In this document: positions 9,407 through 63,998 of the stretch, piece by piece | Layout of the letters: every line of letters begins with the position of its first letter | How positions within the stretch are numbered: the stretch's first letter is position 1 | Source of the DNA: Octopus vulgaris | Taxonomy: Eukaryota | Assembly: GCA_951406725.2 (NCBI GenBank) | Contig: OX597826.1 | Coordinates: 71,424,001-71,488,000 of the forward strand | Direction of reading: 5' to 3' | Length of the DNA stretch: 64,000 bases | Position numbers and translations under genes: made by a program | Notes under the pieces: generated by a model | Seen by the model: the letters and a program-made list of their open reading frames with translations, nothing else | Database searches by the model: none | Told to the model about the DNA's origin: nothing

Positions 9407-10005
9407 GGCGGCGAGCTGGCAGAAACGTTAGCACGCCGGGCGAAATGCGTAGCCGTATTTCGTCTGCCATTACGTTCTGAGTTCAAATTCCGCCGTGGTC
9501 GACTTTACCTTTCATCCTTTCGGTGTTGATAAATTAAGTACCAGTTACGCACTGGGGTAGATGTAATCGACTTAATCCGTTTGTCTGTCCTTGTTTGTCC
9601 CCTCTGTGTTTAGCCCCTTGTGGGAAGTGAAGAAACAGGTATTTCGTCTGCCATTACGTTCTGAGTTCAAATTCCGCCGAGGTCGACTTTGCCTTTCATC
9701 CTTTCGGGGTCGATAAATTAAGTACCAGTTACGTACTGGGATCGATATAATCGACTTAATCCGTTTGTCTGTCCTTGTTTGTCCCCTCTGTGTTTAGCCC
9801 CTTGTGGGTAGTGAAGAAACAGGTATTTCGTCTGCCGTTACGTTCTGAGTTCAAATTCCGCCGAGGTCTACTTTACCTTTCATCCTTTCGGGGTCGATAA
9901 ACTAAGTACCAGTTACGCACTGGGGTCGATATAATCGACTTAATCCGTTTGTCTGTCCTTGTTTGTCCTCTCTGTGTTTAGTCCCTTGTTGGTAGTAAAG
10001 AAATA
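9407..10005 (+). mobile_element. SINE family C array: one head + 3 x 184 bp bodies
   Basis: Unit starts (GTATTTCG) at 9455, 9639, 9823; flanked by a 25 bp direct repeat with 3 mismatches (9382-9406 and 10006-10030). Confidence 0.92.
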
Positions 10006-29620: not shown

Positions 29621-30296
29621 TGGAGGTGAATAGTTTTCCTTTATGCTTTTGGTGGAGGTGAATAGTTTTCCTTTATGCTTTTGGTGGAGGTGAATAGTTT
29701 TCCTTTATGCTTTTGGTGGAGGTGAATAGTTTTCCTTTATGCTTTTGGTGGAGGTGAATAGTTTTCCTTTATGCTTTTGGTGGAGGTGAATAGTTTTCCT
29801 TTATGCTTTTGGTGGAGGTGAATAGTTTTCCTTTATGCTTTTGGTGGAGGTGAATAGTTTTCCTTTATGCTTTTGGTGGAGGTGAATAGTTTTCCTTTAT
29901 GCTTTTGGTGGAGGTGAATAGTTTTCCTTTATGCTTTTGGTGGAGGTGAATAGTTTTCCTTTATGCTTTTGGTGGAGGTGAATAGTTTTCCTTTATGCTT
30001 TTGGTGGAGGTGAATAGTTTTCCTTTATGCTTTTGGTGGAGGTGAATAGTTTTCCTTTATGCTTTTGGTGGAGGTGAATAGTTTTCCTTTATGCTTTTGG
30101 TGGAGGTGAATAGTTTTCCTTTATGCTTTTGGTGGAGGTGAATAGTTTTCCTTTATGCTTTTGGTGGAGGTGAATAGTTTTCCTTTATGCTTTTGGTGGA
30201 GGTGAATAGTTTTCCTTTATGCTTTTGGTGGAGGGGAATAGTTTTCCTTTATGCTTTTGGTGGAGGTGAATAGTTTTCCTTTATGCTTTTGGTGGA
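29621..30296. repeat. 32 bp minisatellite, 21 copies
   Basis: Unit TGGAGGTGAATAGTTTTCCTTTATGCTTTTGG; only one substitution seen (near 30235). Confidence 0.98.
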
Positions 30297-30772: not shown

Positions 30773-31476
30773 AAACTTTGAGCGGAATCGTAACCTTGCT
30801 CTCTGATAACTTCAGGCAAATTCTAACAGCCACTCCAAAGGGTAGATCTGTACATGAGTTGAGAGAACACCATGAACAATCATACTTGGAGACGAGTGGA
30901 AAACCTTAATCCTCTTACCAGCATGGGAAATGCGCTTAAGAGAGAGGCATTAGCACTCTAGTAGTTTGTAAGATGTGTGGCTACAGTTGTGCAGTGGTCA
31001 GCTACCAGTTGATATTGGGAGCAGAGATGTTGCAGTATCAAAAAATTGTGGAACAATTCATCAACAGATGTCCAGAAATGTTATAGAAAATTTAAGTTAA
31101 CGTTCTACAGGATTATAGAAATCCCTGAATGGTTTTGTAAATGTGCCACGTTTGCTCCCCAAGCTATAAAATTTTGCAGGATTTAACTGCAACAGTCATA
31201 CAACAGCTACAAGACCAATCTAGATTGAACGGTTCAACATGCACTCTAATTAAGGCTAATGATGATTCGTCCACATTACTCTGTAAGGAGCATAGGGCCT
31301 GTTTCCCAATGTCTCAGACGTATATTTTCCTCCCTGGACGGGACGCCGGTCCGTCGCATGATAACCCATCTTTACCAGCTGAGCAGACTGGTGTAACGTG
31401 AAAGGAAGTGTTTTGCTAAAGACTAGTCCAGGAATCGAAACCGCAATCTTACAATCATGAGTCTAACATCGTAACC

Positions 31477-32640
31477 TATTTCTTTACTACCCACAAGGGG
31501 CTAAACACCTAAACACAGAAGGGACAAACAAGGACAGACTAACGGATTTAAGTCGATTGTATCAACCCCAGTGCGTAACTGGTACTTAATTTATCGACCC
31601 TGAAAGGATAAAAGGCAAAGTTAACCTCGGCGGAATTTGAACTCAGAACGTAACGGCAGACGAAATACCTATTTCTTTATTACCTACAAGGGTCTAAACA
31701 TAGAGGGGACAAACAAGGACAGACAAAGGGATTTAAGTCGATTATATCGACCCCAGTGCGTAACTGGTACTTAATTTATCGACCCCGAAAGGATGAGAGG
31801 CAAAGTCAACCTCGGCGGAATTTGAACTCAGAACGTAACGGCAGACGAAATACCTATTTCTTTACTACCCACAAGGGGTTAAACACAGGGAGGACAAACA
31901 AGGACATACAAACGGGTTAAGTCGATTATATCGACCTCAGTGCGTAACTGGTACTTAATTTATCGACCCCGAAAGGATGAAAGGCAAAGTCGACCTCGGC
32001 GGAATTTGAACTCAGAACGCAACGGCAGACGAAATACCTATTTCTTTACTACCCAGAAGGGGTTAAACACAGGGAGGACAAACAAGGACATACAAACGGG
32101 TTAAGTCGATTATATCGACCTCAGTGCGTAACTGGTACTTAATTTATCGACCCCGAAAGGATGAAAGGCAAAGTCGACCTCGGCGGAATTTGAACTCAGA
32201 ACGTAACGGCAGACGAAATACCTATTTCTTTACTACCCACAAGGGGTTAAACACAGGGAGGACAAACAAGGACATACAAACGGGTTAAGTCGATTATATC
32301 GACCTCAGTGCGTAACTGGTACTTAATTTATCGACCCCGAAAGGATGAAAGGCAAAGTCGACCTCGGCGGAATTTGAACTCAGAACGCAACGGCAGACGA
32401 AATGCCTATTTCTTTATTACCCACAAGGGGCTAAACACAGAGGGAACAAACAAGGACAGACATAGGTATTAAGTCGATTACATCGACCCCAGTTCGTAAC
32501 TGGTACTTAATTTATCGACCCCGAAAGGATGAAAGGCAAAGTCGACCTCGGCGGAATTTTGAACTCAGAACGTAACGGCAGACGAAATACCGCTACGCAT
32601 TTCATCCGGCGTGCTAACGTTTCGGCCAGCTCGTCGCCTC
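31477..32640 (-). mobile_element. SINE family C array: one head + 6 bodies, inserted in a family D SINE head
   Basis: Unit boundaries 31475, 31668, 31853, 32037, 32221, 32405; perfect 19 bp TSD TGAGTCTAACATCGTAACC (31458-31476, 32641-32659). Confidence 0.95.
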
Positions 32641-36966: not shown

Positions 36967-37558
36967 GACGGCGAGCTGGCAGAAACGTTAGCACACCGGG
37001 CGAAATGCTTAGCGGTATTTCGTCTGTCGTTACGTTCTGAGTTCAAATTCCGCCGAGGTCGACTTTGCCTTTCATCCTTTCGAGGTCGATAAATAAAGTA
37101 CCAGTTTCGCACTGGGGTCGATATAATCGACTTAATCCCTTTGTCTGACCTTGTTTGTCCCCTCTGTGTTTGGCCCCTTGTGGGTAATAAAGAAATAGGT
37201 ATTTCGTCTGTCCTTACGTTCTGAGTTCAAATTCCGCCGAGGTCGACTTTGCCTTTCATCCTTTCGGGGTCGATAAATAAAGTACCAGTTTCGCACTGGG
37301 GTCGATATAATCGACTTAATCCCTTTGTCTGACCTTGTTTGTCCCCTCTGTGTTTAGCCCCCTGTGGGTAATAAAGAAATAGGTATTTCGTCTGTCGTTA
37401 CGTTCTGAGTTCAAATTCCGCCAAGGTCGACTTTGCCTTTCATCCTTTCGGGGTCGATCAAATAAGTACCAGTTTCGCACTGAGGTCGATATAATCGACT
37501 TCATCCCTTTGTCTGACCTTGTTTGTCCCCTCTGCCCCTTGTGGGTAGTAAAGAAATA
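36967..37558 (+). mobile_element. SINE family C array: head + 3 bodies (older monomer at 36742-36950)
   Basis: Unit starts 37015, 37199, 37383 (184 bp period). Confidence 0.92.
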
Positions 37559-42298: not shown

Positions 42299-42858
42299 TC
42301 TGTTTCTTTATTACCCACAAGGGGCTAAACAGAGAGGGGACAAACAAGGACAGACAAACGGATTAAGTCGATTATATCGACCCCAGTGCGTAACTGGTAC
42401 TTAATTTATCGACCCCGAAAGGATGAAAGGCAAAGTCGACCACAGCGGAATTTGAACTCAGAATGTAGCGGACAAATAGAAATACCTATTTCTTTATTAC
42501 CCACAAGGGGCTAAACACAGAGGGGTCAAACAAGGACAGACATAGGTATTAAGTCGATTACATCGACCCCAGTGCGTAACTGGTACTTAATTTATCGACC
42601 CCGAAAGGATGAAAGGCAAAGTCGACCACAGCGGAATTTGAACTCAGAATGTAGCGGACAAATAGAAATACCTATTTCTTTATTACCCACAAGGGGCTAA
42701 ACACAGAGGGGTCAAACAAGGACAGACATAGGTATTAAGTCGATTACATCGACCCCAGTGCGTAACTGGTACTTAATTTATCGACCCCGAAAGGATGAAA
42801 GGCAAAGTCGACCACAGCGGAATTTGAACTCAGAATGTAGCGGACAAATAGAAATACC
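42299..42858 (-). mobile_element. Headless SINE family C array, 3 bodies
   Basis: Boundaries 42299, 42485, 42671 (186 bp period) with a shared variant junction. Confidence 0.9.
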
Positions 42859-45981: not shown

Positions 45982-47997
45982 AAATGTTATATAATGAAAA
46001 TGAAATGGCTGCATGAGACCCACTTCTCATGCAGTACCATTTGAATAGTTTAATCTCTTTACAATCGTTCAACTTGCTTTGTATTTTTCATTACTGTTGT
46101 AAATGTTATGTAATGAAAATGAAAAGGCTGCATGAGACCCACTTCTCATGCAGTACCATTTGAATAGTTTAATCTCTTTACAATCGTTCAACTTGCTTTG
46201 TATTTTTCATTACTGTTGTAAATGTTATGTAATGAAAATGAAATGGCTGCATGAGACCCACTTCTCATGCAGTACCATTTGAATAGTTTAATCTCTTTAC
46301 AATCGTTCAACTTGCTTTGTATTTTTCATTACTGTTGTAAATGTTATGTAATGAAAATGAAATGGCTGCATGAGACCCACTTCTCATGCAGTACCATTTG
46401 AATAGTTTAATCTCTTTACAATCGTTCAACTTGCTTTGTATTTTTCATTACTGTTGTAAATGTTATGTAATGAAAATGAAATGGCTGCATGAGACCCACT
46501 TCTCATGCAGCACCATTTGAATAGTTTAATCTCTTTACAATCGTTCAACTTGCTTTGTATTTTTCATTACTGTTGTAAATGTTATGTAATGAAAATGAAA
46601 TGGCTGCATGAGACCCACTTCTCATGCAGTACCATTTGAATAGTTTAATCTCTTTACAATCGTTCAACTTGCTTTGTATTTTTCATTACTGTTGTAAATG
46701 TTATGTAATGAAAATGAAATGGCTGCATGAGACCCACTTCTCATGCAGCACCATTTGAATAGTTTAATCTCTTTACAATCGTTCAACTTGCTTTGTATTT
46801 TTCATTACTGTTGTAAATGTTATGTAATGAAAATGAAATGGCTGCATGAGACCCACTTCTCATGCAGTACCATTTGAATAGTTTAATCTCTTTACAATCG
46901 TTCAACTTGCTTTGTATTTTTCATTACTGTTGTAAATGTTATGTAATGAAAATGAAATGGCTGCATGAGACCCACTTCTCATGCAGTACCATTTGAATAG
47001 TTTAATCTCTTTACAATCGTTCAACTTGCTTTGTATTTTTCATTACTGTTGTAAATGTTATGTAATGAAAATGAAATGGCTGCATGAGACCCACTTCTCA
47101 TGCAGTACCATTTGAATAGTTTAATCTCTTTACAATCGTTCAACTTGCTTTGTATTTTTCATTACTGTTGTAAATGTTATGTAATGAAAATGAAATGGCT
47201 GCATGAGACCCACTTCTCATGCAGTACCATTTGAATAGTTTAATCTCTTTACAATCGTTCAACTTGCTTTGTATTTTTCATTACTGTTGTAAATGTTATG
47301 TAATGAAAATGAAATGGCTGCATGAGACCCACTTCTCATGCAGCACCATTTGAATAGTTTAATCTCTTTACAATCGTTCAACTTGCTTTGTATTTTTCAT
47401 TACTGTTGTAAATGTTATGTAATGAAAATGAAAAGGCTGCATGAGACCCACTTCTCATGCAGCACCATTTGAATAGTTTAATCTCTTTACAATCGTTCAA
47501 CTTGCTTTGTATTTTTCATTACTGTTGTAAATGTTATGTAATGAAAATGAAATGGCTGCATGAGACCCACTTCTCATGCAGCACCATTTGAATAGTTTAA
47601 TCTCTTTACAATCGTTCAACTTGCTTTGTATTTTTCATTACTGTTGTAAATGTTATGTAATGAAAATGAAAAGGCTGCATGAGACCCACTTCTCATGCAG
47701 TACCATTTGAATAGTTTAATCTCTTTACAATCGTTCAACTTGCTTTGTATTTTTCATTACTGTTGTAAATGTTATGTAATGAAAATGAAAAGGCTGCATG
47801 AGACCCACTTCTCATGCAGTACCATTTGAATAGTTTAATCTCTTTACAATCGTTCAACTTGCTTTGTATTTTTCATTACTGTTGTAAATGTTATGTAATG
47901 AAAATGAAAAGGCTGCATGAGACCCACTTCTCATGCAGTACCATTTGAAGTTTAATCTTTACAATCGTTCAACTTGCTTTGTATTTTTCCTTACCGT
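45982..47997. repeat. 119 bp tandem satellite, 17 copies, one hairpin per unit
   Basis: Period 119 (45982 to 47886); each unit has CTGCATGAGA-CCCACT-TCTCATGCAG. Confidence 0.98.
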
Positions 47998-47999
47998 TC

Positions 48000-60326: not shown

Positions 60327-63092
60327 TCTCTTATTATAAAAGGCAGATTTTATCTGCCTCCCAAATCGTTTGTTTATTATACAAATCTACAATATAGAAT
60401 TTCTTCAATTAGAATTTACCTATCATTTTTACGAGTAGAATACATCGGGTCGTGGCAGGTACAGTTTTTCTAATTTCAACCCCAATTAAGCAAAAATTCG
60501 AGAAAACTCTATATTTTTAGATTTTCCTCTTTCATTTTAACTGCTTCACTCATACCATTACCACTACACTTTCTGCTACTTTCTCTTTGCAACTCTGCAA
60601 TCATGCTATCACCCTAATTTCTCCTACTTTCTCTTTGCAAGTGTACCTTAAACCACTACTCAAAAAAAAAAAATACACAGCAAACAGAAACAAACAAATA
60701 CATAACGATTTACTCCTCACACAATTTCTTCAATTAGAGTTTACCTTTGATTTTTCCAAGTACTTCCATTCGGTCATGCCATACAAAATTTCTTTCAATT
60801 TGAGCCCCAATTAAGAAAAAATTCGAGAAAACTCAATATTTTAACATTTCACTCTTTCACTTCAAAGCCTTTACTCTGCCTATTACTCCCACTTCCTCTT
60901 TACACACATAGACACGCAAATATATACGACAGTGTCAATTGTTGAAAGAAATTGTAAGCTAACGTGTGTGTGTGTGTGAGCGCGTGTGTGTGTGTGTGTG
61001 TGTGTGTGACAGGGATGAGCCATTCAGACTGGTCATCCCTTTTGGCTAGAAGAAGATCCCTTATGGTCTTATATGCTACACCACTGGTTTTCAGTTCAAG
61101 AAGGACTATTCATTATAATACATCAGTTCCACACATTTACCCTGCTTCCATTTCGGACAACTGCACAAACATTTGCCATTTGACACTTGTATGTAAACAA
61201 ATTCCTTTCTTAAAAATTCAAATTCATTTTCTTTTTCAATTTACGTTTCTATACACTTTACGCAAATATTTGATTAAACAACTAAAACACTTCACATTTC
61301 GAACAAGTACGTAAACTACTTCCATTCTTGCAAATCTAACTTTATTTTCTTGCTTTTAACTCAAAAACTACTTCCATTCTTGCAAATCTAACTTTATTTT
61401 CTTGCTTTTAACTCAAATTTCAATACATTTTACACACTCTGTCGCTATTCTTGCATAAAAATTTCTTTCAGCTGCTAATATTTATTTCTTTTCCTTCCAC
61501 GGTTTACATTTTTCCACATTTCATTCACATTACAATTTCTATCTTTAAGTAACTTTCACCCTTTCTTTTTCACATAAAATGCCACCGAAAAAGAGAAGTC
61601 GCCTCGGCCGCCATACTGCAGCAGCAGCGGCGCAAAAGGCGATTATCGCAAACGAGTCTTCCGACAAAAAGGCTTTCAGACTTTCACAGAGCGCAGACAT
61701 CAGAACTGTTGATGGTGTATTATGTGATACTTTCCGCGAAGCCTGTTTTCGGCGTCGACTTTTGGAGGATGATTCACAATGGGGCGCCACTATGGCGGAG
61801 GGTGTTTCATTAAAATCTTCTCAAAAAATCAGATCGCTTTTCGCTATTCTATTACTATGGTGTGACTGGGCTAATCCCGCTTCTTTATGGCTTACCTACA
61901 AAGATGATATGTCTGAAGATTTCCTGCGTCACGCTCAATCGCTACATCCATCAATGGAGGTCGGGTACATTGACCTAATTTACAACAGGGCGCTGCTTGA
62001 AATCGAAGATACTGTACTCGATATGGGCGGTAGTGCCTTGTCGGTCTATGGCCTACCTTCAACAAACCGGGAAGGCACAAACACTCTATCTTCACATTTG
62101 CTGCGTGAGACATGTTTTAATGTTGACGAGCTTGCCGAGTACATAGCCGACAATGAGCCAAAGCTCCTTCCAGAACAGAAGTTCGCTTACAACTCCGTTG
62201 TTAATTCAGTCCAGGCCAAAGCTGGGGGGATTTTTTTCCTGGACGCTCCTGGGGTCACTGGGAAAACTTTTGTCAACAAATTAATATTGGCTGAGATTAG
62301 GTGAACACAAGGCATTGCCCTAGCTGTGGCATCATCTGGAATTGCGGCTACTTTGTTGCCAGGCGGCAGGACAGCTCACTCTACTTTCAAGCTCCCACTC
62401 GACTTAGCGAAGACTGAGACACCAACTTGCAACATCAGTAACAGCTCCGATCAGGCAGAAGTCTTCAGACGATGCAAGCTTATCGTTTGGGATGAATGCA
62501 CGATGGCCCACAGAGGTGCTCTTGAGGCACTAGATAGATCTCTCAGAGACATCAAACACTCTTCAGCTCCCATGGGAGGCATAACACTTCTTCTTTCAGG
62601 GGACTTCCGACAAACACTTCCCGTTATTCCCAAAGGGACTAGAGCTGATGCAGTAAGTGCGTGTCTTAAGTCATCCACATTGTGGCCACTGGTGAAGACT
62701 CTCAAACTTCACACCAATATGCGTGCTCATATGCGACGTGATATCACATCAGCAGCATTTTCTCACACCCTCCTTGCACTTGGCGAAAGCAAAATACCAG
62801 GGGATGAAAATGGTAATATTGCCATCAATTCCATTTGTACCATTGTTAACACGCCTTCTGATCTCAGAGATGCAGTGTTCCCAGATCTACAAGCTAATTA
62901 TCAGAATATGGATTGGATTGGCCAAAGGGCTATTCTGGCCCCGAGGAATAAAACTGTTCACCATATTAATGATGAAATGCTAAAACTCATTCCTGGGGAT
63001 GTCTATGTATATAAGTCTATCGATACAACTCCTGACCCAGAGGACGTCATCAATTATCCAATAGAGGTACTCAATTCCTTTGAGCCCCCCGG
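60327..63092 (+). mobile_element. Internally deleted Helitron (5' end, UTR, helicase)
   Basis: A|TCTCTTATTATAAAA 5' terminus, internal duplications in the UTR, then the Rep/Hel ORF; 3' part cut by (TATG)n. Confidence 0.75.
61579..63092 (+). pseudogene. Helitron PIF1-family helicase with one in-frame stop (62302-62304)
   Basis: FFLDAPGVTGKTF (Walker A), ASSGIAATLLPGGRTAHS, LIVWDE (Walker B), GDFRQTLPV, RAILAPRN, YPIEVLNS; both ORFs share one frame. Confidence 0.93.
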
Positions 63093-63126
63093 ACTACGTA
63101 CGTACGTATGTATGTATGTATGTATG

Positions 63127-63153
<27 letters not shown>

Positions 63154-63158
<5 letters not shown>

Positions 63159-63860
63159 GTATAGAAGCCATCTTATCATGGCTAACCACATAGGGGAGGG
63201 TATGTTACTGTAGCTTTAAAGCCCCAAGAGATCGTCGTCTCTAGCTGGCTTTAGACACCATATCAGTGCCCTTGAAGTATTTGCAAAGGGAGGCCATCCC
63301 TTCCTCGCAAGCCTGAATGATACACTCGGACTAGTTTCGGGATTTTTGTCCCTTGTCAACGGGCGGTAACCACCAGGTTGCGATGAAAGTGAAGGCCTCC
63401 TTCACTTTCATCCAAAATATATAAGAGTTTTTCTAGTGGCGTCTGCCACTGATTTCGAAAAACTAACAGTAAGCATAATTAAATCTCAGAATGAGATTGA
63501 AACAGTAATCGTTCGATAATGTAAAGTATAGAAGCCATCTTATTATGGCTAACCACATTGGGGAGGGGGTGTTACTGTAACTTTATAGCCCCAAGAGATC
63601 GTCGTCTCTAGCTGGCTTTAGACACCATATCAGTGCCCTTGAAGTATTTGCAAAGGGAGGCCATCCCACCATGTGGTTAGCCATGATAAGAAGGCCTCTA
63701 TACTTTACATTATCGAGCGATTACTGTTTCAATCTCATTCTGAGATTTAATTATGCTTACTAAAGCCAGCTAGAGACGACGATCTCTTGGGGCTATAAAG
63801 CTACAGTAACACCCCCTCCCCAGTGTGGTTAGCCATGATAAGATGGCTTCTATACTTTAT
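63154..63860 (-). mobile_element. Retrozyme/Penelope-like element: about 1.4 tandem units of 367 bp plus inverted fragments, in (TATG)n
   Basis: Direct repeat 63154-63300 vs 63521-63668; 63670-63860 is a reverse-complement mosaic of 63468-63620. Confidence 0.75.
63323..63365 (-). ncRNA. Type I hammerhead ribozyme motif, U3-A8 variant
   Basis: CGCCCG-UUGACAA-GGGA(CAAAAA)UCCC-GAA-ACUAGU-C-CGAGUG: stem II, palindromic minimal stem III, GUC cleavage triplet, stem I with one mismatch. Confidence 0.75.
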
Positions 63861-63870
63861 GTATACATAC

Positions 63871-63902
<32 letters not shown>

Positions 63903-63903
63903 G

Positions 63904-63998
<95 letters not shown>

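Follow-up and report, generated by a model that had tools for sequence, protein, structure and literature searches.

A dispersed octopus hammerhead retrozyme family with U3-A8 and U3·G8 cores, a candidate U1/U2-type promoter and a LINE directed to its putative start site

Background

How animal retrozymes are transcribed and copied is an open question. The 64,000-nt stretch of octopus DNA analyzed here (hereafter the window), from a genome of 2.8 Gb, contains close to its right end a non-coding repeat with a hammerhead-like fold. The locus raises the question of whether this is a genuine ribozyme element and, if so, how elements of its kind would be transcribed, cut and inserted. Within a unit of 357 nt the family to which it belongs maps a candidate promoter, a putative start site, a predicted cut site and two putative priming sites, so that each step can be tested by point mutation.

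Architecture of the window copy

The copy is a 514-nt arm on the minus strand (63667-63154). It is composed of one full unit (63154-63520), whose 3' end at 63154 is the first of two end points fixed in the family, and a 147-nt 3' piece of the unit upstream (63521-63667), which is 5'-truncated and lacks the hammerhead. Two plus-strand pieces adjoin the minus arm: an inverted arm (63661-63761) that stops about 50 nt into the next unit, at the 'tail' end, and an additional inverted 3' fragment (63752-63859) that stops at the first fixed end. Microsatellites, to which no strand is assigned, lie on both sides, (GTAT)n on the left (63098-63156) and (TA)n/(TATG)n on the right (63858-63998).

The initial annotation had described a unit repeated with a 367-bp period. 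Merely 149 nt recur at that spacing, and the period of the family is 357-358 nt, which is the unit length of the related copies. The window unit is lengthened to 367 nt by a private fold-back insertion of 9-10 nt (63403-63412, minus strand), which creates a 14-bp hairpin. Likewise, the segment 63661-63859 had been read as tandem units and is made up of the two inverted arms. A circle of about 367 nt is not expected from this locus, contrary to what had been suggested: because the second unit is 5'-truncated and without a hammerhead, a single core remains, and two cuts could not release a 367-nt monomer. Since the window copy has a single core and its promoter motif is displaced by 10 nt, it would not be a master. 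By its architecture it is a dead-end copy of a 357-nt non-coding hammerhead repeat, that is, of a non-LTR retrozyme, and would not itself seed further copies.

The copy is located at the truncated end of a helicase-like remnant (61549-63095, plus strand). The broken frames of this remnant carry Walker A, DE and Q motifs, and it is likely what is left of a Helitron.

The hammerhead fold

Read along the minus strand from 63365 to 63323, the elements follow the order given by the initial annotation: stem I 5' arm, UUGACAA, stem II GGGA/UCCC, GAAAC, UA, GUC and stem I 3' arm. The fold is that of a type I hammerhead (63323-63365, minus strand) with a U3-A8 core, C17, a minimal palindromic stem III and a predicted cut between 63329 and 63328. 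Its three stems surround U4-G5-A6, A9, G12-A13-A14, A15.1-U16.1 and H17. The longer enclosing stem proposed earlier is present in the local fold (z -4.5; 0 of 200 shuffles equally good). Stem I pairs as claimed, but not without interruption, as a C·A mismatch lies inside it throughout the family. Folding from 63384, together with covariation, gives an extended stem I (63300-63384, minus strand), the 5' strand of which opens at the second base after the putative start.

The predicted stability of stem I depends on where the RNA begins. In the window copy its probability is about 0.05 when the whole 367-nt unit is folded versus about 0.5 when folding begins at 63384, and in family copies folded from the ATCG at the putative start it exceeds 0.9, with the long stem again opening at base 2. 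Stem III consists of one pair plus a palindromic loop, and the palindrome duplex is predicted at -6.2 kcal/mol versus -12.5 kcal/mol in a sister group, so cutting would be expected in dimers; the palindromic stem III suited to dimers is in this predicted sense present. Folding of monomers gives stem III a probability of 0 in every family, the canonical one included, and therefore does not discriminate between them. A scan of the whole window against Rfam returned no match at gathering score, and the match of Hammerhead_HH9 at 63307-63377 is weak (27.2 bits, E 0.00087), below its gathering score of 52. Judged by its predicted fold, the window copy is a real hammerhead retrozyme copy.

Core states and lineage order

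Family cores were searched with an exact pattern on stems II and III in which positions 3, 7 and 8 were left free. This yielded 350 exact matches, dispersed copies of the short non-coding unit, and 0 in the reversed control. U3·G8 is found in 249 of the 350 cores, with U17 in 99 of the first 100, and U3-A8 in 92 (77 with C17 and 15 with U17). C3·A8 occurs once and C3-G8 not at all. The 3-8 pair is consequently Watson-Crick in the window copy (U-A) and in the 92 cores that share its state, and a wobble in the 249. A sister group with a different stem II adds 565 U3 cores, the first 100 of which comprise 81 A8, 18 G8 and one other; together with the 341 of this family, at least 900 U3 cores escape CUGANGA searches. 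A young 353-nt relative is canonical, with C3-G8 in 73 of the first 100 of its 737 matches.

These counts bear out the expectation of a multi-copy hammerhead family that a CUGANGA descriptor misses. The U3-A8 state put forward for the family, however, is carried by just 92 of 350 cores versus 249 with U3·G8. The paired change at positions 3 and 8 behaves as compensatory, as had been proposed: among 20 aligned rows spanning related families the pair is U-A in 8, C-G in 7 and U-G in 5. In this alignment, the rows of which were hand-picked and include related sequences that inflate the scores, 93% of the cells are paired, 9 of 23 pairs are changed on both sides, and 0 of 500 shuffles score as high.

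For tree building, positions 3, 8 and 17 were masked. The U3·G8/U17 clade is nested within U3-A8/C17 both in a C3-G8-rooted tree of 103 rows from which 13 of 19 canonical rows had been dropped (support 0.84) and in a midpoint-rooted tree of 47 representatives of 155 (UFBoot 99). These trees place U3-A8/C17 as the older of the two states in the family, with U3·G8/U17 derived from it and more numerous. The tree of the sister group contains a U3·G8 clade that holds a U3-A8 subclade; with nesting in both groups, the wobble state has been gained and lost more than once. A derived state that is also the more numerous indicates that the wobble pair is tolerated. U3·G8 and U17 are expected to slow hammerhead cleavage, and the pair is probably tolerated at a lower cutting rate.

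The U3-A8 core noted initially is present and inherited, but it is not new. Natural U3-A8 hammerheads have been reported (Perreault et al. 2011, PMC3088659), and the accessible text of a study of Schistosoma describes about 1,300 of them, minimal in form, in the pLTRs of Penelope-like elements (PMC4209133). The pair itself is thus already known, and what this family adds, on the counts and trees above, is a dominant derived U3·G8 core. A search of the main text of mostly open-access papers found neither a natural U3·G8 family, nor an octopus report of this one, nor kinetics of the C3U/G8A double change. The related C3-G8, U3-A8 and U3·G8 families form a natural series in one genome, which bears on the level of cleavage that a retrozyme needs and on a wobble pair in the hammerhead active site.

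Two mutational origins of the core states were considered. CpG decay as the source of A8 is rejected for the A8/C17 group, since this is a linked, older subfamily; it may explain part of the 15 A8/U17 cores among the 92. A-to-I editing as the source of G8 is unsupported, the common variants (A>G 9 versus T>C 4) being unpolarized and too few.

Several C3-G8 relatives (L196, L198, L199, L210, L217, L241 and L243) have a stem II that opens with C·A or U·A at 10.1-11.1 and not with G-C, and part of this set carries C4. In one divergent family member (L169), both arms are C3·A8 and stem III is very short.

Insertion footprint

A census of 202 arms from 141 fetched stretches located 99 ends at unit position 354-357 and 82 at position 42-63 of the next unit. 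These two fixed end points, about 50 nt apart, cover 181 of the 202 arms. At 49 loci one arm of each end type is found on opposite strands, while no same-type pairs on opposite strands occur in the census. Many arm ends adjoin (TA)n or AT-rich DNA. Arranged back to back, the two fixed ends match the two-site internal priming of Penelope-like elements (PMC11167929) and their tail (PMC8557442), as far as the accessible text of these papers describes them, and the arms are tandem, inverted and 5'-truncated. Neither the cut site, nor +1, nor a length of exactly one unit collects an excess of 5' truncations; an apparent one-unit pile-up, based on 17 starts at base 1, disappeared when the ends were mapped more finely.

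The genome also contains a young Penelope-like family (L317, L322 and others), in which intact 781-aa frames are numerous and the 3' region is rich in repeats. The 740 nt that follow its endonuclease contain no clear hammerhead.

A candidate snRNA-type promoter

The putative transcription start is an ATCG (63381-63384, minus strand; +1 at 63384), which lies 25 nt before the hammerhead core and is a LINE insertion site in relatives. Upstream of it are an AT-rich box (63414-63427, minus strand), placed about 30 nt before +1 in the family, and a PSE-like motif common to U1 and U2 upstream regions (63446-63453, minus strand), placed at -59 in the family and at -69 in the window copy.

Every one of 19 distinct U1 upstream regions has ATCAGT at -57 to -59, as have, at -59, two unrelated types of U2 upstream sequence. 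In the retrozyme, ATCAGTG lies at -57 to -62 in 83 of 111 copies, 58 of them at -59, and the exact motif is missing in the other 28; the background is 25 per 128,000 positions. U1, U2 and the unit thus share a proximal element at a fixed distance from +1, and ATCAGT about 59 nt ahead of the ATCG, as in U1 and U2 genes, makes it likely that the retrozyme unit has a promoter of the U1/U2 snRNA type. Four LINE copies in U2 genes carry a 16-nt retrozyme-derived head that begins at ATCG; all come from one donor and so count once. A precedent is newt satellite 2, a hammerhead repeat with a Pol II snRNA-type promoter (Coats et al. 1994, as cited in the accessible text of PMC2220036).

A Pol III promoter of the U6 type was also considered, given the AT-rich box and a run of T close to the tail. 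It was set aside because ATCAGT is absent from all 20 U6 matches, most of which are pseudogenes and five of which form one cluster, and because the LINE RNA that starts at ATCG is T-rich. In this genome the proximal element seems to differ between Pol II and Pol III snRNA genes. The tandem U6 cluster (L279-L283) has octamer-like and TATA motifs and lacks ATCAGT.

Contigs of five sequencing runs, presumed to be RNA, cover parts of the unit, although strand, ends and circles are not readable from contigs. Three other runs (organisms A, C and D), the kind of which is not stated, contain both position-8 states.

LINEs at the putative start site

Two long loci (L105 and L061) have a LINE located inside the unit, with a zinc knuckle in ORF1 and APE endonuclease, reverse transcriptase (RT) and zf-RVT domains in ORF2. 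Junctions were searched with LINE 3' ends alone as queries, for two L1/Tx1-type subfamilies (30 loci of 40 scored from 168 candidates for the first, and 30 of 40 from 231 candidates for the second). For the first subfamily, 27 of the 30 loci lead directly into the retrozyme clade, always at the same ATCG some 25 nt ahead of a core; two of the remaining three are in another hammerhead-like repeat and one is a target site joined to a second LINE. The second subfamily enters the retrozyme at 19 of 30 loci and U2 genes at +1 at five, these U2 targets being confirmed by Rfam from model position 1. One further locus is a site with another LINE, and five lie elsewhere.

The 5' junction also lies in retrozyme sequence, with a 14-15-nt duplication of the target site, in 15 of 16 long copies fetched. 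The host units differ by up to 30%, so the LINE insertions are separate. L1/Tx1-type LINEs insert at the putative +1 and likely borrow the promoter. Tx1-clade elements target U2 and other mobile elements according to the accessible text of PMC4494074; the homologues listed for the present LINEs bear no Tx1 names, and our literature search found no prior paper on a LINE that targets the start site of a retrozyme. A LINE that lands on snRNA-type starts is relevant to the question of how target-specific retrotransposons select their sites.

Variants of this arrangement were observed. One U2 gene holds two LINE copies head to tail with the duplicated target between them (L252, G000:C3:20818500-20828000). 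At another locus (L188, G000:C2:52655000-52663600) a 1-kb LINE 3' piece is joined to a retrozyme with an inverted tail arm, apparently a LINE-retrozyme chimera re-copied in Penelope style. The other hammerhead-like repeat (L192:1743-1870 and L193) has a C4 core and an identical PSE-like motif, with the same LINE placed ahead of it.

Proposed life cycle and alternatives

The reading we prefer, at a probability of about two in three, is that of a non-LTR retrozyme with snRNA-like transcription and slow self-cutting in dimers that yields circles, inserted into AT-rich DNA in trans by a Penelope-type enzyme. RNA would begin at ATCG, 25 nt ahead of the core; read-through transcription of rare masters with two units would produce RNA carrying a pair of hammerheads, from which a 357-nt monomer would be cut and closed into a circle, and the Penelope enzyme would prime at two fixed sites, one per cut DNA strand. 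Because the promoter lies upstream of +1, a new copy would regain it only if the enzyme copied more than one unit, and a circle made by two cuts would solve this loss of the promoter in each round. Circle models have been described for related systems in the accessible text of three reports (PMC4209133, PMC7229834 and 10.64898/2026.07.22.740005).

The arms give hints in both directions. Four of 161 are longer than a two-unit transcript from +1 permits, and each of the three rare variants of a 2.5-unit arm (L118) is present in both of its copies, as a circular template would leave. Against a circle, the rare variants over 35 arms with duplicated parts are shared in 5 cases and single in 69. The lack of a pile-up of 5' ends, of excess core conservation within the family and of any effect of hammerhead mutants on insertion in vitro (accessible text of PMC11167929) also speaks against it, and the preferred reading as a whole is weakened by the 28 of 111 copies that miss the exact PSE-like motif and by the 30 GIY-YIG loci, none of which has a pLTR in common with the unit.

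Foremost among the rivals, though in our view an unlikely one, is that the element and promoter are the same and the ribozyme is decayed. The Penelope enzyme would then copy uncut read-through RNA, template jumping would restore the promoter, and U3·G8, U17, the mismatch in stem I and the short stem III would reflect relaxed selection. It accords with this that the most numerous lineage is the derived one without a Watson-Crick 3-8 pair, and that within the family the hammerhead has common variants at 4 of its 43 positions, compared with 35 of 314 positions elsewhere, so that the core has no excess conservation. Insertion in vitro by a Penelope enzyme was moreover unaffected by hammerhead mutants, as described in the accessible text of PMC11167929. 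Families with U3 also seldom form arrays: arms with at least two cores number 2 of 90 (U3-A8) and 5 of 95 (U3·G8) in this family and 6 of 75 and 1 of 17 in the sister group, versus 16 of 48 in the C3-G8 family. Arm lengths likewise indicate a low multi-unit rate; the contrast amounts to a hint, as it sets one canonical family against two U3 families. However, G5, A6, A9, G12-A14, A15.1 and U16.1 do not vary among the 20 rows, whose mean column identity is 65% and which include five with U3·G8. U3·G8 is found repeatedly, in separate lineages, and C3·A8 hardly at all (the single family core, and one of the first 100 in the 353-nt relative), and both L118 and the arms past the two-unit limit fit a circle.

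A pseudo-LTR nature of the unit, which would make the copies 5'-truncated insertions of an autonomous Penelope-like element, is improbable. The ends, the tail and the inverted arms are as in Penelope-like elements, minimal U3-A8 hammerheads are known from such pLTRs (accessible text of PMC4209133), and intact 781-aa GIY-YIG frames are many in the genome. Yet of 150 GIY-YIG matches scored, the 30 loci compared include none that shares the unit as a pLTR, and no ORF interrupts the arms, which run from one unit into the next for as many as 2.5 units. An ORF with RT and GIY-YIG between pLTRs is absent at the window locus and in the long interiors examined. Two of these, L061 and L105, had been candidates for a pLTR-ORF-pLTR element and were rejected, as their interiors hold LINEs; with L189 they are APE-type LINEs with target duplication. 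The least tenable alternative, that the LINE is the mobilizing partner and the repeat its SINE or terminal repeat, has in its favor the unit sequence flanking the LINE on both sides, but is largely refuted by the 14-15-nt target duplications around LINEs inside many divergent host families and U2 genes, and the repeat ends are unlike the LINE 3' end and lack poly(A).

Beyond the retrozyme life cycle preferred above, we tentatively put forward a wider scheme that is less likely than not to hold in full. A retrozyme posing as a Pol II snRNA gene would regain its promoter through a ribozyme-made circle, a U3·G8 wobble would persist in it, a Penelope enzyme would write it from two primers, and it would serve as a landing pad for LINEs. 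In such a three-layer stack U3·G8 could be a living stepping stone between C-G and U-A, and LINEs seeking snRNA-type starts would acquire an upstream promoter and, about 55 nt downstream, a ribozyme.

Comparison with known systems

The comparisons below are with the accessible text of the papers cited. Metazoan non-LTR retrozymes (Cervera and de la Pena 2020, PMC7229834; Li, Clavereau and Pollet 2026, 10.64898/2026.07.22.740005) likewise have a non-coding unit of 150-450 nt, a type I hammerhead and a proposed dependence on Penelope. The axolotl HHR_Amex1 has a similarly weak palindromic stem III, and the axolotl ribozyme cuts efficiently only in dimers. In contrast to the metazoan retrozymes described there, the octopus family occurs mostly as one-core insertions and not in arrays, has U3-A8 and U3·G8 cores, and adds arms that lie back to back and end at two fixed points, a PSE-like promoter motif and a targeting LINE. 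Circles have been shown for metazoan retrozymes, whereas for the octopus family they are proposed. Published U3-A8 hammerheads (PMC3088659; Schistosoma, PMC4209133) show the same core covariation, but in the octopus a U3·G8 lineage outnumbers U3-A8 within one family.

Penelope-like elements (PAc, PMC11167929; PMC8557442) share with the octopus unit the two internal priming sites that define a tail, the tandem and inverted 5'-truncated arms and the AT-rich and microsatellite targets; the octopus unit differs in having no ORF and a tail of about 45-50 nt versus 30-40 nt. Newt satellite 2 is likewise a hammerhead repeat with an internal snRNA-type promoter, which in the newt is read by Pol II, whereas the octopus repeat consists of dispersed Penelope-type insertions in an invertebrate and its promoter is deduced from sequence comparison. 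Like the Tx1-clade LINEs Keno (U2), Tx1 in Tx1D and Tx1-Mar (PMC4494074), the octopus LINEs have an APE endonuclease with RT and a fixed target, multicopy RNA genes or mobile elements as targets, tandem stacking and heads derived from RNA genes. Their target differs in being the putative +1 of a ribozyme-bearing retrozyme as well as the +1 of U2. Set against these systems, what the family adds, as read from its copies, is the dominant derived U3·G8 core, the U1/U2-type promoter motif and the LINE that targets the putative start.

Other repeats in the window

One repeat of 184-186 nt forms four arrays of 3-6 copies each in the window (9455-10003, 31474-32591, 37014-37534 and 42303-42858), which have no Rfam match at gathering score. 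The window also contains two near-perfect tandem arrays with 99% matches, 17 copies of 119 nt at 45982-47998 and 21 copies of 32 nt at 29621-30296.
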